Shown piece after piece: positions 1 to 64,000 of a DNA stretch of 64,000 bases. The notes under the pieces were generated by a model. The model did no database searches. It was given only the letters and a program-made list of their open reading frames with translations, and was not told the origin of the DNA. Made by a program: the position numbers and the translations under genes. Position 1 is the first letter of the stretch; each line of letters begins with the position of its first letter. This DNA is from an uncultured virus (IMG/VR IMGVR_UViG_3300017714_000002) (taxonomy: Duplodnaviria > Heunggongvirae > Uroviricota > Caudoviricetes), in the IMG/VR virus record IMGVR_UViG_3300017714_000002; one strand, 5' to 3'.

Positions 1-1
1 A

Positions 2-2839
2 GGATTAACAGCAACACTTAATATTACAACAGAAGGAAACCCAAATAGATATACTATTAATTGGGGTGATGGAGATGTTACAACAGCTACAACTGATAGT
101 ACTCCAACACACGTTTATAATAACAGTGATAATTCTCCTTTTGATGTGCAAGTTACAGCATTTCATGATCAAGGTGTAGGAGCTGGTAGCTCACAATCAA
201 AAACAAGAGAAGATTATATTTCAATTTTTACCGCCAACCCAGTAGTTAGTTTTGTCGCATTTGACTCACTAACAGGCGGTTCACAGGTTACTACCTGGAA
301 CGACGGTGATACTGTCTACTTCCAAAATACAACAACGAACACAGCCGGAGCAACAATCCAATATACTTGGAATTGGGGCGACGGTTCTGCGGACGATGTT
401 ATATCTGACAACTCAGTTTCAGGTGGTAGTGCTGGTCCGAGGATAGCTCACACATTCTCGGCCAGCACACTCACAGACGTTACTCGTACAGTATCATTAA
501 CACTTGATGCACACGATACAATGACACAAAGTTTACTACCACTAAATGGTAGTGACTCATTTAAAATCTATGATACACATACTCCAGATACAACTTCAGA
601 TATTACAACAGGTATTAATGAAGAATCATCAAATGGATTAGATGTTACATTTACAAACAACACAGAAGCTACTATAGGAAGTTATGCAGATTATGGTATA
701 ACTTATAGATGGGATTTTGGAGATGGAACAATAGAAACAGTTAATGTAGGATCGGGTCAAGCAGGAGATACAGGCAGTACGATAACACACAAATATACAT
801 TAACAAATAATAATACACCTCAAGATTATACAGGTAATTTACAAGTAATAAGTGGACACTCAAGCAGTCCATTTACAAGTTCGTCGTTTAGTATACACGT
901 TGAGCCAGACGTAAGAGCAAACATATCTGGAACGGCAGTACAAGTATCAGACAAGAATGGAGATAACCAGTTTGATGTTTATGATGGATTTGATTATTTA
1001 GGTAATAACAGAGCAATAGTAGAAGTCACAGATACTTCAGAAAATAAAGATAGTGCTGAATTTAATTGGAATGATGGAAGTTCTAATGATACAACAACTA
1101 CTGAAGGATCTATACAACATGACTTCTCAGGCAAAACACCTGGTAACTATCAACTAGATTATACAGCTAGTGGTACACCAGATATAACAGCTCAAACAGA
1201 TACACAGAATTTAACGTTTCAAGTTCATGCAGTTCCTACTGCTCCAGACGGACTTGGAAATAAAACAATTTCACTAGTAGATCCTGCACAAGGTACTGAT
1301 CCAAAATTAGCATATAATTTCACAGATAATAGTGCAACGTCACCATTAACAGCAGGTGATGATTTGGATACAAATACTGCAAGAAGATATACTAGTGGAA
1401 CACTTGACACAACAATAGCTGAAAATGCATATAATGGATTAGCGGGTACTGTAACTGCAATAGTAAATGGTACACCAAATGGATCAACAACCTTTTCTAC
1501 TTCCCTCAATGAAACTGGTACATTTAATGATTTAGTGATCACTCAACAAGATGATGCTCACAATACAATAAGTGCTTCAACATACCCAACTGGTTTCTAT
1601 CAAACATTTGATTCAAAAATTTCTAAACCATTTGCAGAGTATGCTATTGGTGTTAATGATCAGAGAATAGAACATAGTACAACAGGTGAAACAAATTACG
1701 TAACAGTTATGTGTGATGATCTAACAGACGTACCTACACTTGATAATACTAGTTCTATTCTTTCTGAAAGTGTTTCAGGAACTTATAGATACATATCAGG
1801 TATACCATATTATAATACAGGAAATCCAAAATTAATATTATCTGGATTAAATGTATCAAATTGGATAGGACAAGCATATAGAGATACTAATAATGTTTTA
1901 GAAATTAGTAATGGTACTAATGTAGAAGGTACCTCAGCTGGTACAATTCAAACACAATTTAAAGACTATGCGGACTTAGAAGATGCTTCATATCTAGTAA
2001 GTGGTATACCAACAGCTAACACATTAAGTTATTCGTTTGCTGATCAAACTATTGATATTACACAATCAAATATTGCGGCAATAGAAACTATTAAAGCTAG
2101 AATAAAAAATGTTAACGGAACAAGTAGTTATACAGAATTTGATACAAAAGTACAAGTACATAGATCTAATCCAACAGGTGTAATAGAAGATAGTATTCCT
2201 GTAGCGGGTAGTTTAGGTAATGGAACAATAACAGATAATGCAATACGTATAGCAGATTTTGTTTCAGATAGTACAGACAATCCAACAATAGTAGGTTCAA
2301 CAGATTATACAGCTACACCATTTACTGGTGCAGTAAGTGTAAGTGGAACACAAGAAGCAACTGTACGTTGGGGAACATTAGAACACAATACAACAGATTA
2401 TTCAACTGGGTATCTTCCAGTTGGCCCTGATAGAAGTGCAGACACAGGAACACAATATTTTACATTCGCATTCCGTAGACAGGTTGTAGCTAACTTTAGT
2501 ATTACAATTAATACAAATGGAATAAGTGGATTATGGATTGCGGCACCAGGTACTACCGTTGACGGTGCAAGTGGATTAAATGGTTGGATAGATGGTACAG
2601 CTCAATACGCAGGTGTTGGTGTTCCAGGTAGTAACACAGGCTCAGGTGGTAATGGTAGTGATGGTTGTGCATTAACAGGTGCAGACGTTATTCCAACTAA
2701 TTCAAGTATTAACTCAACTTATACAATGACATTAGGTAGTGAGAATATGAGTAATGCAACTAATAATGTTGTATTGATTAGAATAGCATTAGAAGCAGGA
2801 AAACAAATTACAAATTTACAAATAGGGGAGTCTAACTAA
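2..2839 (+). CDS. Large virion structural protein with PKD/Ig-like repeats (5'-truncated by window edge)
   Basis: The frame is open from base 2 (GLTATLNITTEGNPNRYTINWGDGD...), so the GTG at 146 is not the true start. Repeated PKD-type motifs (YTWNWGDGS, YRWDFGDGT, FNWNDGS); T/S/G/N-rich beta-type composition. Confidence 0.75.
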   Translation, partial: GLTATLNITTEGNPNRYTINWGDGDVTTATTDSTPTHVYNNSDNSPFDVQVTAFHDQGVGAGSSQSKTREDYISIFTANPVVSFVAFDSLTGGSQVTTWNDGDTVYFQNTTTNTAGATIQYTWNWGDGSADDVISDNSVSGGSAGPRIAHTFSASTLTDVTRTVSLTLDAHDTMTQSLLPLNGSDSFKIYDTHTPDTTSDITTGINEESSNGLDVTFTNNTEATIGSYADYGITYRWDFGDGTIETVNVGSGQAGDTGSTITHKYTLTNNNTPQDYTGNLQVISGHSSSPFTSSSFSIHVEPDVRANISGTAVQVSDKNGDNQFDVYDGFDYLGNNRAIVEVTDTSENKDSAEFNWNDGSSNDTTTTEGSIQHDFSGKTPGNYQLDYTASGTPDITAQTDTQNLTFQVHAVPTAPDGLGNKTISLVDPAQGTDPKLAYNFTDNSATSPLTAGDDLDTNTARRYTSGTLDTTIAENAYNGLAGTVTAIVNGTPNGSTTFSTSLNETGTFNDLVITQQDDAHNTISASTYPTGFYQTFDSKISKPFAEYAIGVNDQRIEHSTTGETNYVTVMCDDLTDVPTLDNTSSILSESVSGTYRYISGIPYYNTGNPKLILSGLNVSNWIGQAYRDTNNVLEISNGTNVEGTSAGTIQTQFKDYADLEDASYLVSGIPTANTLSYSFADQTIDITQSNIAAIETIKARIKNVNGTSSYTEFDTKVQVHRSNPTGVIEDSIPVAGSLGNGTITDNAIRIADFVSDSTDNPTIVGSTDYTATPFTGAVSVSGTQEATVRWGTLEHNTTDYSTGYLPVGPDRSADTGTQYFTFAFRRQVVANFSITINTNGISGLWIAAPGTTVDGASGLNGWIDGTAQYAGVGVPGSNTGSGGNGSDGCALTGADVIPTNSSINSTYTMTLGSENMSNATNNVVLIRIALEAGKQITNLQIGESN

Positions 2840-4071: not shown

Positions 4072-4177
4072 CATTGTATGGGTTTTACGGCCTATGCAGA
4101 ATACTTACTTTATGTACGTATTCTTTTGCTTATAAAGATTATAGGCAAATCAAATATATTTGATTGGAGAAATCTCT

Positions 4178-7100
4178 ATGGCTTTTAGACAAATTAAGAG
4201 TCCGGCGTTGGCTAACCAAGCGGTTATCGATACCAAACTTGATGCGAGTTCAGTTTCAGGCCAAACTGCAACTACATCAGCAAACAACTTAGATGCTTTC
4301 CTTTTACACGACAATGCGACTTCAGCTCTGAAAAGTATTACAGCGGCAAATTTTATTGGTTCATTTACAACTGATGATATTACCGAAGGTTCAAGTAATG
4401 AATACTTTACAGATGCAAAAGCTCAATCAGCAGTAGCGGCAGACATTGCTACAGCAGTGGCGGCAGAAGCAGTGATAGCACGTGCGGCTGAACTTCAGAA
4501 CGCAAATGATATCGCGGCTGAAACGTCAAGAGCGACAGCGGCAGAGGGTGTAAATGCGACGGACATCGCAAGTGAAATAAGCAGAGCTACAGCGGCAGAA
4601 TCCGCTCTAGATACAGCTTATAAAGCGGCAGATGCTGGATTACAAACTCAAATAACAAACATTATATCAAACGTTGACCCTGCGGCATTAGACAGTTTAT
4701 CTGAAATTGTTGCAGAATTTCAATCTCAAGATAGTGCATTGACTGCGGCAATAACAGCTAACTCGACTTTAATTACAAACGAGACAGCTAGAGCTCAAAC
4801 TGCAGAACAAGCAAATGCAACTGCAATTAGTACAGAAGCAACAAGAGCACAAGGCGCTGAAGCAACTAACGCATCTGATATTTCAACAGAAGCGGCAACT
4901 GCTAGAGCGGCTGAAAATGCACTTGATGCTAGAGTAACTGCTAATGAAGGTGACATTACTACACTAACAACTGGATTGGCGGCGGAAATATCTGCTACAG
5001 ACGGTGAAGTTTCACAACTACAAACCGACTTAGCGGCAGAAGTTACACGTGCATCAGGAGCTGAATTAGCAAATGCACAAGACATTGCAAACGAAGCGAC
5101 TGCAAGAGCAAATGCAGATACAGCGGTAAGAACAGACTTTGCAACAGCAGATGCAACAACTTTAGCATCAGCACAAACATACGCAGATACAGCAGAAGCA
5201 GATGCAATCGCTACAGCGGCGGCAGATGCAACTACAAAAGCAGACGCGGCACAAGCGGCGGCTGAAGCACACGCAGATACAGTATCAGCGGCAGAGACAG
5301 CGGCTATCAATACAGCGGTAGCAGTAGTTGACGCTAAAGTTACTACAAATGCTTCAGATATTAGTGCGTTAGAAACAGTAGTTGGTGATGTAGCAAATAC
5401 ACCACTTGATACTACAGCAACATCAATTGGTGCGGCTATCAACGAACTTCACGGTGAGATTGATACTAACACTACAGATATTGCAACTAACACAGCTGAT
5501 ATCGCAACTAATACAGCTGACATTGCAACTGAAACAGCTAGAATTGATAACATTCTAACTAACACAGACCCAGCGGCACTTGACTCACTGACTGAAATCG
5601 TTACAGCTTTCCAAGCTGGTGATTCAGCGGCAACAGCGGCAATTAACGCAAACGCAACTGCTATTTCGCAGAATGCTTCAGACATCACAACTGGTGACGC
5701 GGCATTACAAACAAATATCAATGCGGAGTCTACAAGAGCACAAGCGGCTGAAGGTGTTAATGCGGCGGCAATAGCGGCAGAAACAACAAACAGACAAGCA
5801 GGAGATGCATCAACTTTAGCATCAGCACAAGCATATGCTGATACAGCTGAAGCAGACGCGATTTCAACTGCGGCGGCTGATGCAACTACAAAAGCAGATG
5901 CGGCAGAAGCAAATGCAATCGCAGACAGTGATGCGGCAGACGTAGCACTAATGGGTGATGCAACACTAGACGGTACAGCAGGTAATACTGTAACAGATAG
6001 AATTGCAACAGCTAAAGCGGGTGCAGAAGCAACAGCAGAAGCTTATACTGACCAAGAAGTTCTAACTGAAAAGACTAGAGCACTTGCGGCAGAAGCGGCA
6101 AACACACTAGCTATTACAGCTAACACTGGTGATATAGCAACTAACGCGACAGACATTGCAACTAACGCAAGTGACATTGCAACAGAAACAGCAGACAGAA
6201 TTGCGGGTGACGCAACTCTAACTACTGCTATTTCAAATGAAGCGTCAACAGCTAGAGCGGCAGAACTTGCTAACGCACAAGCGGTAACAGCAGAAGAAAC
6301 AAGAGCACTTGCGGCAGAAGCGGCAAACGCAACAGCAATAGCAAACGAGGTATCTCGTTCAACTACTGCTGATTCAACGCACACAGCTAACATTGCAACT
6401 AACACTAACGATATTGCTACTAACTTAACAAGTATCAATAACGAAGTAGCTAGAGCAACAACAGCTGAAGCGACACTTCAAAGTAACATCGACACGGAAA
6501 CAGCTAGAATTGATTCAATCCTAACTAATACGGATCCGGCGGCGTTAGATTCACTAACTGAAATTGTTTCAGCATTCCAAAGTGCTGATAGTACAATCAA
6601 TGGTGCAATCACAAGTCTAAGTAATACTGCTTCAACAGACAGAGCGTTAATTCGTACTGAATTTGCGGCGGCTGACACAGCATTAGACACACGTCTAACA
6701 GCTGAAGAAGGCAAAGTATCTACTTTAGAAACACAAGCAGGTAGTGCGGCACTACAGACAACTGCACAAACGTTATCAGAAGCGATCAACGAACTGAACT
6801 CAGGTACAGCGGCTGATTTAACTTCTGTTAATAACGCAATTGATGCAGTAGAAACTGGTGCAGGTTTACAAAGTGACGGTTCTTACTCAGCACACTCAGG
6901 AACACACGCAATTGATTCAGCTTCATCATTACATGATGCAGACTCTAAATTAGATGCGGCAATCCTAGCTGAAAAAACAAGAGCTGAAGCGGCAGAAGCA
7001 ACACTAACTACAAATGTTTCAGCAAATGCAACAGCAATCTCTGGTAATACAGCAGACATTGCAACTAATGCAACAGCAATCGCAACTAATGCATCTGACA

Positions 7101-8908
7101 TCTCTACTAACGCGGCAGACATAGCGTCTGAAGCAAGTACAGCTAGAGCGGCAGAATCAGCGAATGCAAACGCAATTACAGCAGAAGCAACTACAGCAAG
7201 AGCGGCTGAACAAGCAAATGCAACAGCTATCGCAAATGAGTCAACAAGAGCTCAAGCGGCAGAAGCGGCAAATGCAACTGATATCGCAGACAACTTAACT
7301 GAAATTACAGCTACACAAGCTGGCGCAGGTTTAGGTGTTGATGGTACATATTCAGCAAATGCAACAGCAGACTACATCTCAACTGCATCATCATTGAAAG
7401 ATGCTGATAACAAGTTAGATGCGGCTGTTAAAGCAGAAGAAACTAGAGCTACAGCGGCAGAAGGTGTGTTAACTACAAACCTAGCAACTGAAGTAACTAG
7501 AGCTCAAACTGCAGAACAAGCTAATGCGGCAGATATTGCTACAGAAACAGCTAGAGCAACAGCGGCGGAAGCGGCTAATGCAACGTCTATTTCAACAGTA
7601 GCAACAGACTTGGCAACAGAAGTGACACGTACAGACGCTTTAGTAGTCACAGTTAACGATATTATCAGTAACACGGATCCAGCGGCGCTAGATTCATTAA
7701 CTGAAATCGTTACTGCTTTCCAAAATGCAGACAGCACACTAACAGGTACAGTAGCGGCAAACGCAACTGCCATTACTAACCTAAGTACAGCTTTAACAAG
7801 CGAAGTAAATGACAACGACACAGACCACGCGGCGGCGACAACTGACAGGGCGGCTATCCGTACTGAGTTTGCGGCGGCTGATGCGGCTCAAGACACAGTA
7901 ATCGCAACTAAACTAGCACTTGCTGGTGGAACAATGAGTGGCGATATTGCTATGGGCGGTCAACTAGTAACAGGTTTAGGAACAGCGGCCAATCCAGGTG
8001 ACGCAGTATCTAAAGCAGTACTAGATGCGGCAATTTCAGCACAAGACATCTCTACTAATACTACAGATGACTTAGCTGAAGGTTCAAACCTATACTACAC
8101 TGATGCCAGAAGCAGAGCGGCAATTAGTGTTAATGACGTTGCAGGCGCAGGCTTAGTAAGCTACGATAACAGCACAGGTGTTATCTCGGTTGACACTAAC
8201 GAATCAGTCCTAGACTTAACAGATGTATCTGATACAGATTACACTAACAAAGACGGATACGTATTAGCAGTTAACTCAAATGAAGACGGTATGGAACTGA
8301 AAAACCCGTTAAATGTTTTCTCAACACAAGAGAGAATGACAATTAATGGTGATGGATCTGCAACGCAGTATTCATTAACTTTCACTACAACACAAGACCA
8401 AGCAATGGTTTTTGTTGGTGGTGTTATTCAGGATCCATCAACTCACTACACTATCGATAGTGCGGCGAAAACTATCACGTTTAACTCAGCAGTACCAGTT
8501 GGTACACAAATTGTTGTGTTATCACCAGGTGCAGGACTTAACCCAGTACTACTTGCTAACTCAGTATCATTCGACAAACTAGCGGCTGATATTAAAGCAT
8601 ACGTACAAAAAGGTGAAGTATCAGCTTCCGGTTCAACTACAGTTGATTCATTCAACGGTGCGTTGTATCGTTCAGCGAAATACATCATGCAGGTTGATGA
8701 CGGCGCAGGTAACTATGAGACACGTGAAGCTTTAGTAGTACATGATGGTAGTACTGCATACATTACAGAGTACGCAATGGTTTATACTGGTGCAGACTTA
8801 ATTGGTGATGCAAGTGTTACTATGAACGGAAACCAAGTTGAATTAACTTACACTCCGACAAGTGGTACAGCTACAGTTAAAGTGATCGCTACTTACATTG
8901 ATGTGTAA
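4178..8908 (+). CDS. Long Ala/Thr-rich coiled-coil tail fibre-like protein
   Basis: The ATG at 4178 has SD GGAGA (4166-4170). Heptad-like repeats (ETARAxAAE, NATDIA), four DPAALDSL(S/T)EIV motifs, TDD(I/L)xEGSxNxY(F/Y)T motifs, and a C-terminal 'YRSAKY..QV...VVHDG..AYITEY' virion domain. Confidence 0.75.
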   Translation: MAFRQIKSPALANQAVIDTKLDASSVSGQTATTSANNLDAFLLHDNATSALKSITAANFIGSFTTDDITEGSSNEYFTDAKAQSAVAADIATAVAAEAVIARAAELQNANDIAAETSRATAAEGVNATDIASEISRATAAESALDTAYKAADAGLQTQITNIISNVDPAALDSLSEIVAEFQSQDSALTAAITANSTLITNETARAQTAEQANATAISTEATRAQGAEATNASDISTEAATARAAENALDARVTANEGDITTLTTGLAAEISATDGEVSQLQTDLAAEVTRASGAELANAQDIANEATARANADTAVRTDFATADATTLASAQTYADTAEADAIATAAADATTKADAAQAAAEAHADTVSAAETAAINTAVAVVDAKVTTNASDISALETVVGDVANTPLDTTATSIGAAINELHGEIDTNTTDIATNTADIATNTADIATETARIDNILTNTDPAALDSLTEIVTAFQAGDSAATAAINANATAISQNASDITTGDAALQTNINAESTRAQAAEGVNAAAIAAETTNRQAGDASTLASAQAYADTAEADAISTAAADATTKADAAEANAIADSDAADVALMGDATLDGTAGNTVTDRIATAKAGAEATAEAYTDQEVLTEKTRALAAEAANTLAITANTGDIATNATDIATNASDIATETADRIAGDATLTTAISNEASTARAAELANAQAVTAEETRALAAEAANATAIANEVSRSTTADSTHTANIATNTNDIATNLTSINNEVARATTAEATLQSNIDTETARIDSILTNTDPAALDSLTEIVSAFQSADSTINGAITSLSNTASTDRALIRTEFAAADTALDTRLTAEEGKVSTLETQAGSAALQTTAQTLSEAINELNSGTAADLTSVNNAIDAVETGAGLQSDGSYSAHSGTHAIDSASSLHDADSKLDAAILAEKTRAEAAEATLTTNVSANATAISGNTADIATNATAIATNASDISTNAADIASEASTARAAESANANAITAEATTARAAEQANATAIANESTRAQAAEAANATDIADNLTEITATQAGAGLGVDGTYSANATADYISTASSLKDADNKLDAAVKAEETRATAAEGVLTTNLATEVTRAQTAEQANAADIATETARATAAEAANATSISTVATDLATEVTRTDALVVTVNDIISNTDPAALDSLTEIVTAFQNADSTLTGTVAANATAITNLSTALTSEVNDNDTDHAAATTDRAAIRTEFAAADAAQDTVIATKLALAGGTMSGDIAMGGQLVTGLGTAANPGDAVSKAVLDAAISAQDISTNTTDDLAEGSNLYYTDARSRAAISVNDVAGAGLVSYDNSTGVISVDTNESVLDLTDVSDTDYTNKDGYVLAVNSNEDGMELKNPLNVFSTQERMTINGDGSATQYSLTFTTTQDQAMVFVGGVIQDPSTHYTIDSAAKTITFNSAVPVGTQIVVLSPGAGLNPVLLANSVSFDKLAADIKAYVQKGEVSASGSTTVDSFNGALYRSAKYIMQVDDGAGNYETREALVVHDGSTAYITEYAMVYTGADLIGDASVTMNGNQVELTYTPTSGTATVKVIATYIDV

Positions 8909-9077: not shown

Positions 9078-11123
9078 ATGGCACAAAGAAAATTTATAAT
9101 TGACGGTGGTTTTAAAACTGATGACGCCTCAGAATTACTAGCCAATTTAACGATGGGTGGTTCAATCCTACCTGACGTTGATTCGGATGGTACAACTGGT
9201 TACGACTTGGGTTCTACTACTGCAAAATGGAAAGATTTATACCTTTCTCAAGGATCACTTTACATTAATAACCAAAAAGTAATCCATGATGATTCAGGTA
9301 CAATCGTTCTTAAAGCAGATACGGACCAAGGCTTAACTGTTAAAACTGAGGGCACAGGAGTAATTACCCTGCAATCAACACAAACAGTAAATGTCGCTGG
9401 TACTTTACAGATGCTAGATGGCAAAAACATCACTTCAAGTGGTGGAACTTCAGTTGGTTTTGGTGACAAAATTGACATGAATTCAAACAAGATAATAAAT
9501 GTTCCAAATCCGACAGACGGTGGGGACGTTTCTAACAAAACTTATGTGGACTTACAGATTTCAAACGTAGTCAACGGTGCACCAGGTGCGTTAGATACAT
9601 TGAACGAATTAGCAAACGCCTTAGGTGATGACGCTAATTTCTCAACTACAATAACTAATAACATTGCGGCAAACGCAAGTGCTATTACTGCTCTACAAAC
9701 TACAAGTAGCAATAATGGTACTGCAATGACTACAGCTCAAGCAGATATTATTGCTAATACAACAGCTATATCTTCTGAAGCAACTACAGCTAGAGCGGCA
9801 GAAGCCACTTTAACTACAAACCTAGCGGCAGAAACTACAGCTAGGGTAGCTTTTGAAACATCTGCAACTGCAGACATTGGTTTAAAAGCGGCGAAGACTT
9901 ATGTTGATTCACAAGACGCGGCATTAACATCTACACTACAAAGTTATGCAGATACAGCTGAAGCAGATGCTGTTACTTCTGCTAACTTATATACAGACGG
10001 TAGAGAAACTGCAATTACAACAGCTTATACTAGTGCAATATCAGTACTTACAACTGATGATGTTCCTGAATCAGGATCACCAACTAATGTATACTTTACT
10101 GACGCAAGAGTAGATACTGCATTAGGTACAGTTGGCGCAGACATTCTTCCTGCAACAACTGAAACTTACAACTTAGGTTCAGCAACAAATCGTTGGAATA
10201 AACTATTCCTAAAAGGTTCAACAATTGACCTAGGTGGTGTAGACATTTCAGCTTCAGGTGGCGGTATGTCAGTTGGTGGTTCAGACATGGCTACTCAAGC
10301 ATATGCAGACCAAGCAGAAGCAGATGCGATTACAACAGCAGTAGCTAATATTAAAGGCAATGCTCTAGACATGGGTGCTAATGATATTACTACAACTGGT
10401 AAAGTTAAATTTGCTAACGTTTACGCGACAGACGGCGATCTACCAGCGGCGGGTACATACCACGGTATGTTTGCTCACGTACATGATGGTGGAAAAGCTG
10501 TTTTTGCTCACGCAGGTAACTGGGTGGAACTAGCTAAACAATCAGATCTTACAACTGCGGTTAACAACCTTGTAGATTCAGCACCAGGTGCTTTAGATAC
10601 ATTGAATGAACTAGCGGCGGCAATGGGTGATGATGCTAACTTTAGTACAACAATGACTAACAACCTAGCAAGTAAAGCGGCAACAGGTACTAACATGATA
10701 GCTGGTAACGGCTTAACAGGTGGTGGTACACTAGCAAGTGATCGTACATTTAACGTCGGTGGCGGAAATGGTATCACAGTAAGTGCAGATGGCATAGCTA
10801 TGTCAGGTTCATATACTGGTGACTTTACAGCAACTGGTGATGTTACAGCATACTCAGATGAGAGCTTAAAAAGAAACATTCAAGTAATTGATGGTGCTCT
10901 AGGAAAAGTAGAGAATATTAGTGGTTACACTTGGAACAGAATTGCAGATGATTCAAGAGCAACAGGTGTTGTTGCCCAAGAATTAGAAGCAGTACTTCCA
11001 GAAGCAGTACACACTGATGCAACTGGTTTAAAATCAGTAGCATATGGTAACATTACAGGTCTACTAATTGAAGCGGTTAAGGAATTATCAGCTCAAGTAG
11101 CAGAACTTAAAGCTAACAAGTAA
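9078..11123 (+). CDS. Tail fibre protein with C-terminal intramolecular chaperone (peptidase S74-like)
   Basis: Two APGALDTLNELA(N/A)A(L/M)GDDANF motifs and a YHGMFAHVH..FAHAGNWVEL module. C-terminus AYSDESLKRNI...GVVAQELEAVLPEAV...VAYGNITGLLIEAVKEL is the classic S74 pattern. Confidence 0.85.
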   Translation: MAQRKFIIDGGFKTDDASELLANLTMGGSILPDVDSDGTTGYDLGSTTAKWKDLYLSQGSLYINNQKVIHDDSGTIVLKADTDQGLTVKTEGTGVITLQSTQTVNVAGTLQMLDGKNITSSGGTSVGFGDKIDMNSNKIINVPNPTDGGDVSNKTYVDLQISNVVNGAPGALDTLNELANALGDDANFSTTITNNIAANASAITALQTTSSNNGTAMTTAQADIIANTTAISSEATTARAAEATLTTNLAAETTARVAFETSATADIGLKAAKTYVDSQDAALTSTLQSYADTAEADAVTSANLYTDGRETAITTAYTSAISVLTTDDVPESGSPTNVYFTDARVDTALGTVGADILPATTETYNLGSATNRWNKLFLKGSTIDLGGVDISASGGGMSVGGSDMATQAYADQAEADAITTAVANIKGNALDMGANDITTTGKVKFANVYATDGDLPAAGTYHGMFAHVHDGGKAVFAHAGNWVELAKQSDLTTAVNNLVDSAPGALDTLNELAAAMGDDANFSTTMTNNLASKAATGTNMIAGNGLTGGGTLASDRTFNVGGGNGITVSADGIAMSGSYTGDFTATGDVTAYSDESLKRNIQVIDGALGKVENISGYTWNRIADDSRATGVVAQELEAVLPEAVHTDATGLKSVAYGNITGLLIEAVKELSAQVAELKANK

Positions 11124-23524: not shown

Positions 23525-24493
23525 ATGTTTAGATTTTACACAGAAAGAAAATGGTTACTATGGGCTTGGATAGGTTCAGCAATCATTTTATCATCATTAT
23601 GGGTTCAAGTTAAAATTGATGTCAAAATAAATGAATGGTTTGGCCAATTTTACGATATGATCCAAAAAGCACTAGCTACACCTAATGCAATCACTATAGG
23701 TGAGTATTGGGCTAGTTTAGGAACTTTTATATATCTAGCAATGATATATGTCGCACTAGCAGTAGTGATAAGTTATTTTACTGCACACTTCTTATTTAGA
23801 TGGAGAACTGCAATGGTAGAGTGGTATCATGCAGTATATGATAAAGCAAGAAAAATTGAAGGAGCGGCACAAAGGGTTCAAGAAGATACTATTAAGTTTT
23901 CCAGAATAATGGAATCACTTGGTACAAGTTTAATTGAATCAATTATGGTTATGGTACAGTTTGTACCTATATTATTTGGACTATCAGTAGGTATTCCTAT
24001 CTTCTTCTTTGGAGATTGGCAGTACGGATTGATTACAGGTGCAATAGTATGGAGTGTTGGAGGCACTTTATTTTTAATAGGACTAGGATGGCTACTTAGA
24101 CTCGTGGGTGTAGAATATGATCTACAAAAGAAAGAAGCGGCCTATAGAAAGATACTAGTTATAGCAGAAGATGACGATACTGTTAGACCAAAAAGAATAG
24201 ATGAATTATTTGCAGACGTTAGAACAATTCACTTTAAATCATATATAAGATACTTATATTTTAATGTAGGCAGAATTGCTTATTTACAAGCTAATGTTTT
24301 ATCTGCTTATGTATTTTTAGCACCAGCCATTGTTGCAGGTGTAGTAACACTTGGCGTTATGCAACAAATAATAAGAGCATTTGGAAGAGTAGAAGGGTCG
24401 TTGCAATATTTACTTAAAGCATGGCCTACAATTATTGAACTTGCAAGTGTATATAAACGTTTACGTGAATTTGAAAGACAAATCACTAAATAA
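23525..24493 (+). CDS. sbmA: SbmA/BacA-family inner-membrane peptide transporter
   Basis: FRWRTAM..WY...IEGAAQRVQEDT.KF matches the SbmA/BacA signature. Also INEWFGQFYDMIQKAL, QKKEAAYRK.LV..ED, WPTIIELASVYKRLREFE, and multiple TM segments. Confidence 0.9.
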   Translation: MFRFYTERKWLLWAWIGSAIILSSLWVQVKIDVKINEWFGQFYDMIQKALATPNAITIGEYWASLGTFIYLAMIYVALAVVISYFTAHFLFRWRTAMVEWYHAVYDKARKIEGAAQRVQEDTIKFSRIMESLGTSLIESIMVMVQFVPILFGLSVGIPIFFFGDWQYGLITGAIVWSVGGTLFLIGLGWLLRLVGVEYDLQKKEAAYRKILVIAEDDDTVRPKRIDELFADVRTIHFKSYIRYLYFNVGRIAYLQANVLSAYVFLAPAIVAGVVTLGVMQQIIRAFGRVEGSLQYLLKAWPTIIELASVYKRLREFERQITK

Positions 24494-24509
24494 TCATATA
24501 GGAGATTTT

Positions 24510-25004: not shown

Positions 25005-25005
25005 T

Positions 25006-26208
25006 ATGAAGATTTGCATCATAGGAGGCGGAACTACAGGATGGTGGGCCGCTGGTTACATAGAGCATAACTTTCCAGATTATGATATAACACTTATTGA
25101 AAGTAGTGATATACCAATAGTTGGCGTAGGTGAAAGTACACTTCCTATGATCAAAACTTTTTTTGATAGTTTTGGTATGCAAGAAGAAACATGGATGTCA
25201 AAATGTGATGCTATACACAAACATGGTAATATAAAACAAGGTTGGGATAAACCAGATGGTGATGAATTTAAATTTACATTTTGGTTTAATGATGATAATG
25301 TATTTGAAGATTGGTATAAGAAGTACAAAGCAGGTGAAGTTACAAAACATCAAATCAACGAAGAACTGTATGATGCCAAAGGTTGGAGAGCAGTAGCATA
25401 TCATTTACACGCAGAAGAAGCAGGGCGTATAGTAAAAGAAAATTGTAAAAATGTAAAACATATTGTACAAACACTTGATAAAAGACCAGAGGGGTATGAC
25501 TTATATATTGATTGTACAGGTTTCCGTAGACAATTTGTCAACGATAAAACTGAAGTAGAAATACATGAAAAGCATTTAGTTAATAGTGCTTGGGTTTGTC
25601 CATTTGAGCTAGATGAACATATTCCATATACTAGAAGTATAGCACGTGATTATGGTTGGCAATTTAAAATTGGATTAACTTCTCGTATTGGTACTGGTTA
25701 TGTTTATAGTGATAAGCATATTAGTAATGAAGATGCACTAGAAGAGTTTAAAGATTATACAAAAGACTTAACACCATTTATGGGTAAACAACCACGTAAT
25801 ATTAAATGGAATCCTAATTGGTTAAAGAATCCATGGGCAGGCAATACGGTTGCTATAGGGCTTAGTCAAGGCTTTATTGACCCATTAGAATCAAATGCAT
25901 TGTTTATGATACAATATAGTATTACGACGCTTGTAGAGTGCTTAAAACGCGAATATGACGCCAAAACTTACAATAGAATGATCAACAGAGTTTGGAAAGA
26001 AAACAGTGATTACATATTACATCACTATGCATTATCTAACAGAGACGATACAAGTTTCTGGAAAGAATATACAGATATGGATATGAGTGAAACTGTATGG
26101 GAACACTATAAAAAGACTGGAAACAAATATACTAATCTTTATCCCGATGCTATATGGGCAACACTAGCTCTTTACTACGATAATTTCAAGCATTTTTCCG
26201 GAAAATAA
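25006..26208 (+). CDS. Flavin-dependent tryptophan halogenase-like protein
   Basis: IIGGGTTGW (FAD), PIVGVGEST, AIHKHG (catalytic-Lys region), IDCTGF, GWQFKIGL (WxWxIP-like), RIGTGYVYS, and IGLSQGFIDPLES. Confidence 0.88.
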   Translation: MKICIIGGGTTGWWAAGYIEHNFPDYDITLIESSDIPIVGVGESTLPMIKTFFDSFGMQEETWMSKCDAIHKHGNIKQGWDKPDGDEFKFTFWFNDDNVFEDWYKKYKAGEVTKHQINEELYDAKGWRAVAYHLHAEEAGRIVKENCKNVKHIVQTLDKRPEGYDLYIDCTGFRRQFVNDKTEVEIHEKHLVNSAWVCPFELDEHIPYTRSIARDYGWQFKIGLTSRIGTGYVYSDKHISNEDALEEFKDYTKDLTPFMGKQPRNIKWNPNWLKNPWAGNTVAIGLSQGFIDPLESNALFMIQYSITTLVECLKREYDAKTYNRMINRVWKENSDYILHHYALSNRDDTSFWKEYTDMDMSETVWEHYKKTGNKYTNLYPDAIWATLALYYDNFKHFSGK

Positions 26209-29642: not shown

Positions 29643-30281
29643 ATGAAAAAAGTAATAGGTATATGTGGCCTTATTGGTCATGGAAAAGATACAGCCGCAG
29701 GATTCCTAATTGAAGAAGGATTTCAAAGAGTAAGTTTTGCTGGAGTATTAAAAGATGCCTGTGCTAATATATTTGGTTGGGATAGAATACTTCTAGAAGG
29801 CAACACCACTGAAAGTAGAGCATTTAGAGAACAAACAGATGAATGGTGGAGTAAACGTTTAGATATACCTAACTTTACACCACGTTATGCACTTCAGTAT
29901 GTTGGTACAGATGTATTAAGAACACATTTTCATCCAGACATATGGGTAGCGGCTTGTGAAAGACAAGTACAACAGACAGAAAAAAATGTAGTTATAAGTG
30001 ATTGTAGATTTTTTAATGAACTTGATGCAATTCAAAACATGGGTGGCCGAACTGTAGTAGTATGGAGAGAAGAAAAACCAGAATGGTGGCACAATGCTTC
30101 AGAGCTAAATCATGCTAACTACAAAAAGAAATCAAATATGGTAGATAGTATGAAATCAAATTATCCAGATGTACACAAAAGTGAATGGAGCTGGGCAGGT
30201 TGGGATTTCGATTTACAATTAGATAATAACTCAACATTAGAATCATTTAAAACACAGACAATCAGTAAAATTATAGAATAA
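29643..30281 (+). CDS. gp1: Deoxynucleoside monophosphate kinase (T4 gp1-like)
   Basis: IGICGLIGHGKDT P-loop, SFAGVLKD, TPRYALQYVGTD, VISDCRFFNE, and HKSE. Confidence 0.9.
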   Translation: MKKVIGICGLIGHGKDTAAGFLIEEGFQRVSFAGVLKDACANIFGWDRILLEGNTTESRAFREQTDEWWSKRLDIPNFTPRYALQYVGTDVLRTHFHPDIWVAACERQVQQTEKNVVISDCRFFNELDAIQNMGGRTVVVWREEKPEWWHNASELNHANYKKKSNMVDSMKSNYPDVHKSEWSWAGWDFDLQLDNNSTLESFKTQTISKIIE

Positions 30282-31161: not shown

Positions 31162-33591
31162 ATGGCAAATCTTGTTTCACCTGGCGTACAGGTAACAGTA
31201 ACAGACGAATCAGTATACGGCCCAGCAGGCGCTGGTACGGTTCCAATGTTGTTTATTGCCACTGGTCAGGACAAGGTTGATCCAACCCTTACTGAGTCAG
31301 ACGGCATAGCGAAATATACAAAGTCTGCTAATGCAAACAAGCCAATATTAGTTACATCACAGAGAGAATTAACTCAATACTTTGGTAATGTTGACTTCCG
31401 TAAGGTAAGTGGAACAGTACAACAAGGTGATGAAACTAACGAATATGGTTTATTAGCGGCATACTCATTCTTAGGTCAAGCCTCAGCGGCATACATCTCA
31501 CGTGCAGATGTTGATTTAAATGAATTAAGACCGGCTTCATCAGAGCCAACAGGAGATCCAGCAAATTTAACATACTGGATTAAACCTTCAACTTCATCAT
31601 TTGGTATTTGGAAGTATAGTACTGCAAATACTGCTTGGGAAGAACAAACTCCAACAGTTGAAATTACATCAAGTGGTGCACCTACTGCGTCAGTAGTAAC
31701 AGGTGGATATCACGTTGTATTAGAAAATGGTTCAGCTGGAACAACAATAAAATATTTTGCGGCTAGTGGCGGAGCATGGGTTGATAACTTTGGCCCAACA
31801 ATGGCACCACACTATTCAGCACCAAGTTCACCATCAGATGGTGACGTTTGGATTAAAACTACAAAACCAGGTGGTGGATTGGACTTAGACGTTCAATTAT
31901 TTACAACATCAGCAGGTAACTTTGTTAAACAAAGTGTAGTTTATGTACAAGACACAGCACCGGCAGGTACAACTTCGGATGTATTTGCAGACGGTACTTC
32001 AGCAACTGCAAGAACATTAATTGATGGAGATATCTGGATGGATATTTCTTCAACTGATGCATCATTAATCTTAAACAGATATGATAGTATTGGAAATGGT
32101 TTTGATCAGGTTGCAACAGATCCATCAGTAGCAACTGGCGGTTATGTAATGGAAGTTAAAACAACAGAACCAGTAGGTGCACCAGTAAATGGTACACTAT
32201 GGTTTGACCCAGATGTAAATGAATTAGCAGTTTACGAAGTAGTAAGCGATTCAGGAACACAAAAATGGCAAAGAGCATCAGACGTACAATACGTTACAAC
32301 TGCACCAACAACAGATGGTTCAGGCGGTTCTTTATCAGCAGGTGACTATTGGATAGATACAGATGCTTCAGGGTATCCTGTAATTTACAGACACAATGGT
32401 ACTGCTTGGGTAGCAAAAGATAAAGCAGATCAATCAACTGCGGCAGGCGTAGTATTTGGAGATATTACTGCAAATGATACGACAGCAGGCGCATTTGAAG
32501 CAACTCTATTAGCAGGTGCACCAGATCCATTAACACACCCAGTAGGAATTACTGGACTTAATATGTGTAGATCAGGTGGAACAGTTAGAGAATATAATTC
32601 AGCTCTAACTACAACTTGGAAATGGAGAAACAAAGCAGGTAATCAAGCAGATGGCAGTGGTTCATTTGGTAGAATTGCACAAAGAAAAGTAGTAGTAACA
32701 GCTATGCAGGCTTCGGCAGGTGTAAGTGAACTACAACAAGATACAATTCAATTCCGTTTACTTGCGGCACCAGGTTATCCTGAACTATATGATGAAATGG
32801 TTTCATTGAACAGTAATAGAGATGAAACTGCATTTATCATTGTTGATGCACCATTCCGTTTAAATCCAACAGAAGCAGTATCTTGGATTCAAGGAACAGG
32901 CGCAACTACAAATGGTGAAAACGGCCTAGTAACAAAGAATACTTACTCAGCAGTTTATTATCCACACGCATACACAACTAATCCTGTAACAGGTGATAAC
33001 GTTGTAGCACCAGCATCACACATTGCATTATACACTTATGCGTATAGTGACAATGTATCATTTCAATGGTTTGCACCAGCTGGTCTAACACGTGGTGTTG
33101 TACAAAATGCATCAAATGTTGGATACTTAAATAGCGAAGATGAGTTTGTGTCACTAGCAGTAACTCAAGGTCAAAGAGACTCAATGTATGATAAAAAATT
33201 AAACCCAATAGCTAAATTTCCTGCAGAAGGTGTTGTAGTATTTGGACAAAAATCATTACACGCGAGTGCCTCAGCATTAGACAGAGTTAATGTTGCTAGA
33301 TTAACAGCTTACCTAAGAGAACGTTTTGCAGTTATTTCAAGACCGTTCTTGTTTGAGCCAAATGATACTAGTACTAGAGCAAATGCTAAACAAGTATTTG
33401 ACGGTTTCCTAGCTAATATTTTACAACAACGTGGAATATATGACTTTGCAGTAGTTTGTGATACAACAAACAATACGCCGGCTAGAATAGACGCCAATGA
33501 ATTTTACATTGATGTTGCTATTGAGCCAACTAAAGCGGCAGAGTTTATTTACATTCCAATTAGAATTGTAAACACTGGCGAATTAAGCTAA
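31162..33591 (+). CDS. gp18: Tail sheath protein
   Basis: Late box at 31095. LVSPGVQVTVTDES, WFAPAGLTRG, FGQKSL....SALDRVNVARL, FLFEPND..TR, VVCDTTNNTP..ID, and P.KAAEFIYI. Confidence 0.95.
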   Translation: MANLVSPGVQVTVTDESVYGPAGAGTVPMLFIATGQDKVDPTLTESDGIAKYTKSANANKPILVTSQRELTQYFGNVDFRKVSGTVQQGDETNEYGLLAAYSFLGQASAAYISRADVDLNELRPASSEPTGDPANLTYWIKPSTSSFGIWKYSTANTAWEEQTPTVEITSSGAPTASVVTGGYHVVLENGSAGTTIKYFAASGGAWVDNFGPTMAPHYSAPSSPSDGDVWIKTTKPGGGLDLDVQLFTTSAGNFVKQSVVYVQDTAPAGTTSDVFADGTSATARTLIDGDIWMDISSTDASLILNRYDSIGNGFDQVATDPSVATGGYVMEVKTTEPVGAPVNGTLWFDPDVNELAVYEVVSDSGTQKWQRASDVQYVTTAPTTDGSGGSLSAGDYWIDTDASGYPVIYRHNGTAWVAKDKADQSTAAGVVFGDITANDTTAGAFEATLLAGAPDPLTHPVGITGLNMCRSGGTVREYNSALTTTWKWRNKAGNQADGSGSFGRIAQRKVVVTAMQASAGVSELQQDTIQFRLLAAPGYPELYDEMVSLNSNRDETAFIIVDAPFRLNPTEAVSWIQGTGATTNGENGLVTKNTYSAVYYPHAYTTNPVTGDNVVAPASHIALYTYAYSDNVSFQWFAPAGLTRGVVQNASNVGYLNSEDEFVSLAVTQGQRDSMYDKKLNPIAKFPAEGVVVFGQKSLHASASALDRVNVARLTAYLRERFAVISRPFLFEPNDTSTRANAKQVFDGFLANILQQRGIYDFAVVCDTTNNTPARIDANEFYIDVAIEPTKAAEFIYIPIRIVNTGELS

Positions 33592-39463: not shown

Positions 39464-41020
39464 GTGGCAGTAGACACAAAATTAACCAAAACCCCTTATA
39501 GAAAAGAAAAATATACAGAAGCTCAACTTACTGAGTTAGCTAGATGTGCCAATGACCCAAAATATTTTATGAGGGAGCATTGTTATATTCAACATCCTAC
39601 TCAAGGACGTCTAAAATTTGATCTATATAATTTTCAAGACGAGCTAGTAGACGTATATCATAAAAATAGATACAGTATTAGTATGTTAGCCAGACAAATG
39701 GGTAAGAGTACCTGTGCGGCAGGTTACCTGTTATGGTATGCTATGTTTAATCCTGATCAAACAATTTTAGTAGCGGCACACAAATATGCAGGTGCTAGTG
39801 AAATTATGCAACGTGTTAGATTTGCATACGAAACACTTCCAGACTTTATACGTGCTGGTGTAACAAGTTACAATAAAGGTAGTTTAGAGTTTGATAACGG
39901 TAGTCGTATTATTGCACAGTCAACAACAGAAAACACAGGTAGAGGTTTATCTATTTCATTAGTATACTTAGACGAGTTTGCATTTGTTAGACCAAACATA
40001 GCTAAAGAGTTTTGGACCTCACTTTCACCTACACTAGCAACAGGTGGTAAATGTATTATTACAAGTACACCAAACATGGATGACGATCAGTTTGCACAAA
40101 TTTGGCGAGACTCATTAAAGAATCAAGATGAATTTGGAAACGAAACTGCTACTGGTATAAATGGATTTGCTCATTATCAAGCAACTTGGGAAGCTCACCC
40201 AGATAGAGATGAAGATTGGGCTGAAGTTGAATTAGGAAAAATTGGCGAAGAAAGATTTAGACGTGAACATAAATGTGAATTTATTGCATTTGATGAAACA
40301 CTAATTGATAGTATTAGACTTGCAAATATGGAAGCAAGGGACCCTTACGCAACAGCAGGTCAAGTTAGGTGGTATGCACCATTAGCAAAAGGTAAACTTT
40401 ATATGATAGCATTGGATCCAAGTTTAGGCACAGGAGGAGATAATAGTGCTATACAAGTTTATCAAATGCCAGGAATGAAACAAATGGCAGAGTGGATGCA
40501 CAATAGAACTACTGTACAAGGACAGATTAAAATTTTACGTGAGATTGCACAATACATTGAAAGTGAAACAAATAACGATTGTGAAATATATTATAGCATG
40601 GAAAATAATACACTTGGTGAAGCGGCCCTGGTTACAGTAGAAGAACAAGGAGAAGAAAACTTTCCTGGTACATTTTTAACTGAAACAAGACAGCATGGAA
40701 ATGCTAGAAGATACAGAAGAGGCTTTACTACAACACATAAATCAAAAATATCAGCTTGTGCTAAACTAAAGCATTGGATTGAAACTGATAAGTTAGAGGT
40801 AGCAAGTAAGCCTCTATTAAGAGAATTAAAAACATTTATAGCTAGAGGAAATAGCTATTCAGCTAAAGATGGCGAAAATGATGACTTGGTAATGTCATTA
40901 GTATTAATAGTACGTATGAGTATGGAAGTATCAAAATACGAAGAAAGTGCATTTGAATACCTTAATGACGACTTTGAAGATGATGACGGTATGGAACCAA
41001 TGCCATTTAGCCTACTATAA
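39464..41020 (+). CDS. gp17: Terminase large subunit
   Basis: GTG start with SD GGAGG. LYNFQ adenine motif, LARQMGKS Walker A, YLDEFAF Walker B, ITSTPN, RNase H-like ALDPSLG.GGD and NDDLVM. Confidence 0.95.
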   Translation: MAVDTKLTKTPYRKEKYTEAQLTELARCANDPKYFMREHCYIQHPTQGRLKFDLYNFQDELVDVYHKNRYSISMLARQMGKSTCAAGYLLWYAMFNPDQTILVAAHKYAGASEIMQRVRFAYETLPDFIRAGVTSYNKGSLEFDNGSRIIAQSTTENTGRGLSISLVYLDEFAFVRPNIAKEFWTSLSPTLATGGKCIITSTPNMDDDQFAQIWRDSLKNQDEFGNETATGINGFAHYQATWEAHPDRDEDWAEVELGKIGEERFRREHKCEFIAFDETLIDSIRLANMEARDPYATAGQVRWYAPLAKGKLYMIALDPSLGTGGDNSAIQVYQMPGMKQMAEWMHNRTTVQGQIKILREIAQYIESETNNDCEIYYSMENNTLGEAALVTVEEQGEENFPGTFLTETRQHGNARRYRRGFTTTHKSKISACAKLKHWIETDKLEVASKPLLRELKTFIARGNSYSAKDGENDDLVMSLVLIVRMSMEVSKYEESAFEYLNDDFEDDDGMEPMPFSLL

Positions 41021-41058: not shown

Positions 41059-42534
41059 ATGGAATTATCGACAGAAATTTTTAATATACTAAAAGGCGCT
41101 AATATCAAATTAAAACTTTTTGATGCAATGGGTGCTAAAACACTAGATCCTGAATCAGCATCTAGATTTTATGCATACGAAGATGACTTTTTAGTAACAA
41201 AAAGAATTGAAAATGAAGATACTGAAATTGTAGTTCAAGCAGGTGCAGACTTTAGTTTTGATAAAAACAAAGCCATGCTTGACAGTATAAAGAAAGCAGG
41301 ACATAACGCCATGGCAGAATATAACGTAAGAAAATTTGATAAAAACATAGTTCCAAAAGACTTTGTAGCTGAAGGCTATGAAAAAACTTGTTTAAATACT
41401 ATTAAAGATGCAGGACTAGATGGTTTCTTTAATAATGGAACATTATACATTGAAGGTGGTAAAGCTGATGTACAATCAGCTAGAGAAGCTATACAAGCTG
41501 AACCAGATATTTACAAAGCACCACCTATTGCTAAAGATACAGACTATTATGGAATGAATGATTTTACTGAAACAGTAAATGAAGCATATAGAAAAGCAAC
41601 AGGTACATTAAAATCAAGTTATGTTATGTTTCCAGAATCAACAAGATTAGTTATCAGACACAATAAAGCAGTAGATGAAGAAGTACGTGGTAGTAGATCA
41701 CGTAACATCAAAGGCTTGTTTATTGAAAATTCAACAGGTGAAAGATTTAAATTCCCATACAAATATTTAAATGGTGCAAAAGCTATGGCCAACCATGTAA
41801 GTCATGGTGGTACACCATATGATGCAATTGGTGAATCAATTTTACAACTTTGTGAAGAAATAGCTCAAGTGAATACATTTGTTAAACACGTTCGTTCAAA
41901 CAAATTAGTTAACGAAACTAACGAAAAAATTGTAGAAACTTGTAAGAGCAAATTAAAAGGTTTAAAACATACTATAGAAAGTTTACAAACATCAAAAGGT
42001 TACAGTAATTTTGAAGCTAAAACTCCAATCGTTGAAAATTCAGATAAACCGGTTGACATTGCGGATAAATTCATGTACAATACGTTTAAGAATGCAGATA
42101 TGAATGCAGTTCTTGAAACAATAGCTCGTATAGTAAAGGAAGCAGATTCTATGGATGATATGGTTAATGACGCAATTATGAAGTTATACGGAATGATCAA
42201 AGATAAAGTTGATTTTAAACTTAATATTGATCCAGCAGATCCGGATCATCCAGATAACGAAGATCCTATTAAATACTCAGGTGGAATGGGTGCTCAAGCA
42301 AAATTAAGTAGTTTACTATCTTACCTTGCTATGAACAGTAAGAATGATGAAGCATTTAACCATTTAAGTTTAATTGGTAGCGAATTACATCGTTTACCAC
42401 AACAAAAACTTAGTCTGGTAAACAAAATGGCTATATTCTTAGACAAGCATTATAAAGCACCGTCTAAAGAACAAGCACCAGCTGAAAGCATAGTAGAATC
42501 ATCGGTAAAAAGTTTACGTAGAAAAGTTGCGTAA
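41059..42534 (+). CDS. Late hypothetical protein
   Basis: Late box at 41032; RSRNIKGLFIENSTGERFKFPYKYLNGAKAMANHV motif. Function unknown. Confidence 0.65.
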   Translation: MELSTEIFNILKGANIKLKLFDAMGAKTLDPESASRFYAYEDDFLVTKRIENEDTEIVVQAGADFSFDKNKAMLDSIKKAGHNAMAEYNVRKFDKNIVPKDFVAEGYEKTCLNTIKDAGLDGFFNNGTLYIEGGKADVQSAREAIQAEPDIYKAPPIAKDTDYYGMNDFTETVNEAYRKATGTLKSSYVMFPESTRLVIRHNKAVDEEVRGSRSRNIKGLFIENSTGERFKFPYKYLNGAKAMANHVSHGGTPYDAIGESILQLCEEIAQVNTFVKHVRSNKLVNETNEKIVETCKSKLKGLKHTIESLQTSKGYSNFEAKTPIVENSDKPVDIADKFMYNTFKNADMNAVLETIARIVKEADSMDDMVNDAIMKLYGMIKDKVDFKLNIDPADPDHPDNEDPIKYSGGMGAQAKLSSLLSYLAMNSKNDEAFNHLSLIGSELHRLPQQKLSLVNKMAIFLDKHYKAPSKEQAPAESIVESSVKSLRRKVA

Positions 42535-61577: not shown

Positions 61578-61582
61578 TTAAC

Positions 61583-62578: not shown

Positions 62579-62584
62579 ATGAGT

Positions 62585-63265: not shown

Positions 63266-63295
63266 AGATAAATACATTATATTAAGGAATAAACA

Positions 63296-64000
63296 ATGAC
63301 AACAACGACAGCTAGAATGACAGTTAGAAAAGGTAATTTGGCAGATTTGCCAAAATTACTACCAGGTGAATTTGGACTTGCACAAGACATTCAAAGATTA
63401 TTCATAGGACAAGCTTCAGTAAATGGAACTTGCCAAGTAAGTAATAGTGATGCAACGACAGCTAAAGTAGAATTTACTTCAGCAAACGGCGATCCTATTG
63501 ATTTAGATTTAATCGCTAATTTAGATCAGTATACTTATGGAATCACAGTTAACCCAGCAAGTGATAATATTTCTATAACAGGTAATAACATAACATTCAA
63601 GGATGCAGTTGCATCATTCTCGCATGGCTTATCTTCAACTCCTACATCTAGTACAGTTTTTGAACTTTACTATAATAAAGAAGTTGGCTACCATGCAGAA
63701 GCATTCCCAAATCCAGTACAGTCTCAAAGTCTAAACAAACTGACAGCAGATTCTGCAGGACCTAAAGAATCAGGAATTGAATTTATTTGTGCAAATAAAG
63801 ATAAGATTACTATTGATTATAGTTTAACAACAACGTCAGCTTCAAGACACGGACAGTTATCAATCCTAATTGATGACAATGCTGGCGTTCCTACAACAAG
63901 CTCAATCAAAGACGTATATGACATCAGCAATGGCGCAATGCCTTTAGTCTTTAGTCTTTCACATAATAGTACAGACAAATTTAGTTTAATGTTTGATACT
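63296..64000 (+). CDS. Late virion protein with Mtd-N-like start (3'-truncated)
   Basis: Not in the ORF track because it has no stop in the window. Late box at 63268, SD AAGGA; MTTTTARMTVRKGNLADLPKLLPGEFGLAQDIQRLFIG; the frame appears open to the window end. Confidence 0.7.
   Translation, partial: MTTTTARMTVRKGNLADLPKLLPGEFGLAQDIQRLFIGQASVNGTCQVSNSDATTAKVEFTSANGDPIDLDLIANLDQYTYGITVNPASDNISITGNNITFKDAVASFSHGLSSTPTSSTVFELYYNKEVGYHAEAFPNPVQSQSLNKLTADSAGPKESGIEFICANKDKITIDYSLTTTSASRHGQLSILIDDNAGVPTTSSIKDVYDISNGAMPLVFSLSHNSTDKFSLMFDT

Follow-up and report, generated by a model that had tools for sequence, protein, structure and literature searches.

Complete avoidance of GCWGC in a marine jumbo phage, and a flank rule for further purged words that may be the footprint of a base modification

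The DNA considered here is a 64,000-base stretch (34.8% G+C) of an uncultured tailed virus (Caudoviricetes; IMG/VR record IMGVR_UViG_3300017714_000002), referred to below as the window, and the question that it raises is why one short word, GCWGC (W, A or T), is missing from it. A sequence-only reading of the window had spotted no GCAGC or GCTGC and had called GCGGC and GCCGC abundant. The exact count agrees, with 0 GCAGC and 0 GCTGC on both strands, and 135 GCGGC and 8 GCCGC. We compared these counts with a null model in which synonymous codons are exchanged, gene by gene, among positions of the same amino acid (500 shuffles; the script's protein-identity check returned False, which we attribute, unchecked, to codons in short gene overlaps). 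This null predicts 109.7 ± 4.7 GCWGC sites (± standard deviation; range 98-121), where none is observed. GCSGC (S, G or C) is in excess, with 143 occurrences versus 38.5 ± 4.7 in the shuffles (maximum 51). Likewise, a maximum-order Markov model predicts 97 GCWGC sites in the window. When all words of 4 to 6 bases with at least 8 expected occurrences were scanned against 300 shuffles, GCAGC/GCTGC was the strongest outlier (z = -22). These comparisons confirm that GCWGC is avoided throughout the window.

The absence extends to related DNA. The window is the reverse complement, at 99.93% identity, of positions 32776-96780 of a longer record (G001; 124,177 bases, an estimated 34% of a genome) that has 0 GCWGC versus 171 expected and 221 GCSGC, and seven contigs with 89-100% nucleotide identity (L001-L007) are all free of the word. 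A sequencing or assembly artefact, for example systematic miscalling of a modified word, would have to account for these records too. Modification-linked miscalls are reported for nanopore data, but the seven contigs are independent of one another and near-identical DNA is present in 20 of the runs listed, which come from 19 studies (seawater, marine or viral metagenomes) and consist of short-read data or contigs. Thirteen of the 20 runs are flagged as potential sources of the window's DNA. Moreover, miscalls to GCSGC would alter amino acids in two of the three reading frames, and it is synonymous alternatives that are used in those frames. We regard an artefact as practically negligible.

The window still encodes 136 Ala-Ala pairs, so GCWGC was lost by synonymous choice and the proteins are unchanged. 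As the sequence-only reading had noted, isolated alanine codons are mostly GCA or GCT, and the first alanine of a pair is GCG or GCC. When the next codon does not begin with GC, alanine is encoded by GCA 933 times, GCT 496 times, GCC 64 times and GCG 71 times, whereas before GCN it is encoded by GCG 128 times, GCC 8 times and GCA or GCT never (136 of 136 are GCS). The preference for GCG therefore depends on the following codon, and all eight of the positions singled out in that reading carry GCGGC or GCCGC. Recoding is densest in an alanine-rich open reading frame (ORF) of 1582 amino acids at 4160..8908 on the plus strand (23.7% Ala; no family match), which had been called a fibre gene with dozens of forced pairs and which contains 69 Ala-Ala pairs, 69 GCGGC and 0 GCWGC. 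In the second reading frame GGT AGT is used and GGC AGC is avoided. In the third, a glutamine codon that follows a G and precedes a C is CAA in 14 of 14 cases, where CAG would create GCWGC. At 131 positions that have GCWGC in relatives, the window has GCGGC at 26 and GCCGC at 2. Because synonymous removal occurs in all three frames, these data support selection that targets the GCWGC word itself.

The identity of the replacement bears on whether selection is needed at all. If a methylated cytosine in GCWGC were prone to deamination, the word could erode by mutation alone, and the methyltransferases that accompany GCWGC enzymes are indeed reported to be cytosine methylases. The predominant replacement, however, turns GCW into GCS; this alters the central base and is not what C-to-T mutation yields. 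The loss is also total and preserves amino acids in every frame. Mutational decay is thus exceedingly improbable. The GCSGC excess, which arises at a central W that is not a target of methyl-cytosine deamination, supports selection of the restriction type.

Although GCWGC is the largest of the purged words, it is one of about ten, and the single-motif account given by the sequence-only reading was too narrow. The others are CATG, CASTG, CAATTG, CTTAAG, CTWAG, AAGCTT, GCGC, GCWWGC and AGCGT, and most of these are lost in particular flanks: the window is free of RCATGY, RCASTGY, RCAATTGY, RCTTAAGY, HAAGCTTD, HGCGCD, HGCWWGCD and HAGCGTD (R, purine; Y, pyrimidine; H, not G; D, not C). Equivalents of the HindIII, HhaI, NlaIII, MfeI, AflII, TspRI and NspI sites are among the purged words. 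Since GCG is tied to GCG-GCN in these genomes, we built nulls that forbid GCWGC, so as to exclude an artefact of that coupling. Depletion of AGCGY and WGCGCW as a mere by-product of the GCG-GCN coupling could be rejected, since the depletions persist under these nulls. In G001, RCATGY occurs 0 times versus 58.7 expected, WGCGCW 0 versus 25, GCWWGC 2 versus 33, AGCGTW 5 versus 53 and ACTWAGT 1 versus 22, and the similar words ACATGA, CCATGC, GGCGCA and GCAGGC are at expectation. A further idea, that GCWGC, GCWWGC and WGCGCW belong to a single series with a GCW half-site at varied spacing, was rejected since wider spacings are normal.

Some weaker biases accompany the purges. Runs of A or T fall below the codon-shuffle expectation in the window (AAAA 0.87, AAAAA 0.80 and AAAAAA 0.65 of expectation), and CCTC/GAGG and GGGA/TCCC are low (0.65-0.66). 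TCGA stands at 0.45-0.78 of expectation in G001 and in four related records introduced below (G002, G003, G005 and G006), and several other CpG-containing words are low in G001. The TCGA and CpG lows look like a general CpG-junction bias that is separate from the flank-conditional purges.

The set of purged words varies among relatives. GCWGC is absent from G002 (0 observed, 68 expected) and from G003 (0 observed, 131 expected), whose terminase is 70% identical, whereas G005 retains 38 of 200 expected sites, mostly as GGCWGC, and G006 retains 167 of 328. GCSGC is nonetheless elevated in all five records. WGCGCW is purged and AAGCTT depleted in all five, the purges of RCATGY and ACTWAGT are limited to G001, G002 and G003, and that of RCASTGY is limited to G001 and G002. 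Within G006, stretches of 5 kb that are clean of GCWGC alternate with normal ones: 150-160 kb has 0 of 17.5 expected sites and 20 GCSGC, and 190-200 kb has 74 of 100. This mosaic points to past recombination of lineages that had purged the word with others that had not. A quick tree built from 75 terminase rows needs at least 4 changes to account for the absence of GCWGC, and the window lies within a clade of 8 rows that all lack the word. Avoidance is thus lineage-variable, as a host-specific pressure predicts.

Silent recoding, the GCSGC excess at the central base and lineage specificity fit together only under selection on the word, and deaminative decay, an artefact and a nuclease of the phage's own each fail to explain at least one of the three. 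The last of these would be self-avoidance, in which a GCWGC nuclease encoded by the phage destroys host DNA and the phage genome is kept without sites. G001 does encode two staphylococcal-nuclease homologues and a SegE-like GIY-YIG endonuclease, but neither family is known for 5-bp-specific cutting, the 124 kb of G001 yielded no restriction-enzyme-like gene, and the purge covers about ten words, with relatives purging different sets. We consider self-avoidance very improbable. Avoidance of short palindromic restriction sites by virulent double-stranded DNA phages, on the other hand, is classical biology, and the pattern described here is of that known kind: palindromes of 4-7 bp lie far below an expectation that preserves composition and codons, have been removed silently, and differ in set between relatives. 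It is unusual in that no GCWGC site is left (0 of about 110 in 64 kb and 0 of 171 in 124 kb), in that about ten words are affected at once, and in that most of them are affected only in certain flanks.

The flanks obey one rule. Across nine word families in the window, sites without a G-purine step (G followed by A or G) in or beside the site number 5 versus 149.3 expected, whereas sites with such a step on one strand number 180 versus 208.2, and those with a step on both strands 65 versus 69.4. All five survivors without a step are RCTWAGY sites, and GA or GGC abuts each of them. ACTTAGC at 5028..5034 and ACTTAGC at 8070..8076 are each directly preceded by G, creating an abutting GA; GCTTAGT at 8151..8157 is directly preceded by G, creating an abutting GGC; GCTTAGT at 25860..25866 is abutted by GGC on the top strand and by GA on the bottom strand; and ACTTAGT at 42408..42414 is directly followed by C, which places an abutting GA on the bottom strand. 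The same dependence is seen for eight families in G001, in which 6 of 232 expected sites remain when neither strand has the step, 352 of 395 when one strand has it and 123 of 132 when both do.

For palindromic cores that end in G, sites were classed by their flanking bases. In G001, CATG is absent between R and Y (0 of 59 expected) and persists with one protected strand (168 of 173) or between Y and R (53 of 73); the R..Y class of the other cores holds 0 of 28 expected CASTG, 1 of 16 CAATTG and 0 of 6 CTTAAG. A or G after the G of the site protects (RCATGA 97 of 88 expected, RCATGG 71 of 87), whereas a pyrimidine does not (RCATGC 0 of 38, RCATGT 0 of 78). GG protects mainly when a pyrimidine follows it, with 2 of 27.8 expected sites surviving as GGR and 42 of 35.5 as GGY (CASTG, CAATTG and CTWAG combined, G001). 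In cores where every G precedes C, survival is decided by a G directly outside the site. Thus, HAAGCTTD is absent from the four records tested (0 of 24.4 expected in G001, 16.0 in G003, 24.2 in G005 and 37.6 in G006), and GAAGCTT persists (11 of 14.2 in G001). Likewise, HGCGCD occurs in none of the same four records (0 of 31.3, 31.8, 45.3 and 59.4 expected, respectively), and GGCGC persists where HGCGCD is purged. Even the GCWGC sites that survive in G005 obey the rule, with HGCWGCD at 15 of 164 expected versus GGCWGCD at 23 of 34. As a purely statistical statement, then, a restriction site survives if and only if GA or GGY lies in or beside it, which amounts to protection in a fixed short G context.

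Several controls bear on this rule. Flanks make no difference to CATATG, CTATAG and CACGTG, cores that are not targeted. In a test that presupposes no motif, a G-purine step is missing from all 10 purged 6-mers versus 473 of 1873 other 6-mers (Fisher p 1e-6), and from 34 of 50 purged 7-mers versus 1263 of 5554 others, with the purged words amounting to four to seven families and therefore to fewer truly independent events. When the classes were counted in 100 kb of the Pseudomonas jumbo phage PA5oct and in 120 kb from each of three marine alphaproteobacterial genomes, ratios of observed to expected were about 1, and the same pipeline recovered the known GANTC depletion of Alphaproteobacteria.

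Taken together, the purge and the flank rule lead us to favor, as the probable though by no means certain explanation, two layers of escape from DNA-cutting defences, namely removal of words and a predicted modification of bases. The purge in the first layer is a statistical fact and its cause is what we infer: restriction-type selection by a marine host population would have removed short targets through synonymous recoding, completely for GCWGC and conditionally for nine other words. In the second layer, the phage would modify the G of 5'-GA-3' and 5'-GGY-3', the modified base would block cleavage, and only sites beyond the reach of the modification would have had to be deleted. GCWGC has no G-purine step inside it, and in the window's lineage a flanking G does not rescue it, so it would belong with the sites that cannot be shielded. 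Modification in a short context most simply explains why a single flank rule holds over nine unrelated cores.

There is precedent for such marks. Phage CAjan is reported to carry preQ0 at GA and GGC (PMC7544227), a strict GA motif is reported for phage iggy (PMC10484667), and in PA5oct a modified G is suspected at GA and/or GG (PMC12191111). The shield context predicted here, GA plus GG-pyrimidine, is close to that of CAjan, with the difference that GGT appears to be protective here and is reported to be cut in CAjan. The 100 kb sample of PA5oct differs in having none of the purges. From phages that rely on DpdA for partial 7-deazaguanine replacement the present ones differ in that no DpdA, QueC or FolE was detected in the records searched, and the modification proposed for them is a prediction from site statistics.

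Several observations weigh against this two-layer explanation, the first of them from our gene searches, which covered five records (G001, G002, G003, G005 and G006) that are an estimated 19-56% complete. None of the five matches the TGT/DpdA profile PF01702, which a phage DpdA may escape, none has QueC above the cut-off and none matches the FolE profile. A PTPS/QueD-like gene occurs in one of the five, G006, where it scores 50.6 bits in Pfam and 34 bits for NCBIfam QueD versus a cut-off of 89. No C5, N4/N6 or Dam methyltransferase (PF00145, PF01555, PF02086) scored above cut-off in these records. The flank rule itself is uneven for CATG followed by GGR, as RCATGGR is found at 26 of 47 expected in G001, 0 of 25 in G002 and 20 of 25 in G003. 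Partial depletion also affects some GA-containing words (TCTAGA 22 versus 43, ATCGAT 6 versus 17 and TTCGAA 12 versus 24 expected). The purged words share sequence features, so that independent events are fewer than the word counts. A modified G and a modified C paired with it (in TC/RCC) are inseparable from the sequence. Finally, the purged words are not depleted in the 120-kb samples of the three marine alphaproteobacterial genomes, and no restriction gene was seen in candidate hosts.

Two of these points, the lack of a modification gene in the records searched and the imperfection of the rule for CATG followed by GGR, favor plain restriction avoidance without any modification. The host enzymes would then recognise the flanked words themselves (RCATGY, RCASTGY, RCAATTGY, RCTWAGY, WGCGCW and HAAGCTTD), and in favor of this explanation RCATGY is a real specificity, that of NspI. 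However, it requires nine unrelated cores all to reduce to one rule, that of having no G-purine step; it requires specificities such as HAAGCTTD and HGCGCD that are unlike those of palindromic enzymes; and it requires one rule to hold across four records whose purged words differ. We therefore judge plain restriction avoidance to be unlikely, though the least unlikely of the alternatives.

A second variant keeps both layers and makes the shield a modification of cytosine in 5'-TC-3' and 5'-RCC-3', which the strand-symmetric statistics fit equally well. No cytosine methyltransferase was found (PF00145, PF01555), however, and it is context-specific replacement of G at GA and GGC that has a precedent. 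No phage cytosine modification specific to TC/RCC is known to us, though no search aimed at one was made. A cytosine shield thus seems improbable to us.

For the survivors, we tentatively propose, at somewhat less than even confidence, that they are a footprint, legible in plain sequence, of base modification (of G in GA/GGY or of the paired C) in an abundant clade of marine jumbo phages, made by enzymes that TGT, QueC and FolE profiles do not recognise. If so, the modification system may be new. Literature listings showed no report of flank-conditional avoidance as the footprint of a partial modification and none that joins motif depletion with deazaguanine in such a pattern, which is not proof of absence.

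Some genes in these records touch on the same subject. In family searches the ORFs of the window gave no methyltransferase match, and its sole nucleotide-handling gene that could bear on unusual bases is a T4 gp1-like deoxynucleoside monophosphate kinase at 29643..30281 on the plus strand (phrog_139, E 1.6e-43; PF21448). Outside the window, G001 encodes ClpX, IF3, ribosomal protein S21 and ClpS together (L161:1700-6454), and the ClpX/S21/ClpS group adjoins genes for a glutamine amidotransferase, a cytidylyltransferase-like protein and a dehydrogenase of the IMPDH/GMP-reductase family. This trio is a candidate purine-modifying gene group. In PA5oct, ClpX, S21 and ClpS adjoin GTP cyclohydrolase I and QueD. 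The 205 kb of G006 contain 19 radical SAM matches, with many grouped in the initial 25 kb; G003 and G005 each have 3, and none occurs in G001. Those radical SAM genes that were tested encode twitch-domain proteins and not QueE, the one tested in G006 matching NF033640 at 317 bits.

Given that selection appears to be of the restriction type, the enzymes and the host come into question. BbvI-type enzymes, which are Type IIS, recognise GCAGC. The literature gives G^CWGC as the cutting site of TseI (PMC3643589) and lists ApeKI and TseI as GCWGC cutters (PMC4926085). The purged word therefore equals the recognition sequence of these Type IIP enzymes, as the sequence-only reading had said, and it was also right to exclude GCNGC cutters, given that the 143 GCSGC sites are tolerated. 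The TseI/ApeKI and BbvI types are indistinguishable here, GCAGC and GCTGC being reverse complements. In the marine methylome literature, a search for GCWGC turned up only the m4C methylase of a freshwater Chloroflexi.

The host lead comes from a SbmA/BacA-like transporter gene of cellular type at 23525..24493 on the plus strand (PF05992, 459 bits). Its product is 88-89% identical in amino acids to proteins of uncultured marine Alphaproteobacteria, from loci with 35% G+C, and 82-85% identical to those of the listed Pelagibacter records. This gene is the sole host lead, and we treat its resemblance as a lead only. For ClpP the similarity is greater to the genomes of a Pelagibacter (G010) and a member of the Puniceispirillaceae (G011), at 58-60% versus 50%. 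SbmA and ClpP point differently, and the sampled genomes, which were chosen for a gene resembling a phage gene, do not avoid the purged words; we make no host call. The earlier proposal of selection by a host restriction system is thus upheld as to selection at the level of the word, its recurrence and the purging of other palindromes, and falls short as to the host and the system, neither of which could be named from the genomes sampled. The hoped-for fingerprint for host prediction is unrealised, given the lack of depletion in the three marine alphaproteobacterial genomes.

As to the phage itself, the predicted ORFs of the window are those of a T4-like contractile-tailed phage, including sheath, tube, terminase, UvsX, UvsY, a gp32-like protein, primase and helicase, and the window is from a T4-like marine jumbo myovirus. 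A related record of 204,772 bases is put at 56% completeness, which would make the full genome about 360 kb. The large terminase (39464..41020, plus strand; phrog_36964, E 8e-132) is 53.7% identical to that of PA5oct, which makes PA5oct the closest cultured relative in this comparison, and 48-50% identical to those of Atu_ph07 and Phosso. The tail sheath (31162..33591, plus strand; phrog_10581, E 1.6e-203) is 37-38% identical to those of Atu_ph07 and PA5oct. Among deposited phages there was no megablast match to 12 kb of the window, and 589 of 598 candidate stretches in viral contigs encode terminase relatives. Two tail-fibre ORFs (9078-11123 and 13036-14679) have a common C-terminal domain and match the same long-tail-fibre distal-subunit families. 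A run of cellular-type genes at 23525-26208 and 30306-31058 comprises the SbmA/BacA-like transporter, RpiB, a protein of the tryptophan-halogenase family and an Asp/Asn beta-hydroxylase-like protein. Nearly all genes lie on one strand, and the strand is asymmetric in composition (A 24,045 versus T 17,710; G 12,428 versus C 9,817).

The flank rule turns plain sequence into a testable prediction about the DNA marks of an uncultured phage and the enzymes with which its hosts cut DNA. The predicted motifs, with GA and GGY shielded and GCWGC unshieldable, are directly checkable on environmental DNA. The phage is common in seawater, and its clade is represented by hundreds of fragments in viral contig collections. 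If the footprint proposed here is real, the purged words would be a catalogue of about ten restriction specificities in a marine host population.

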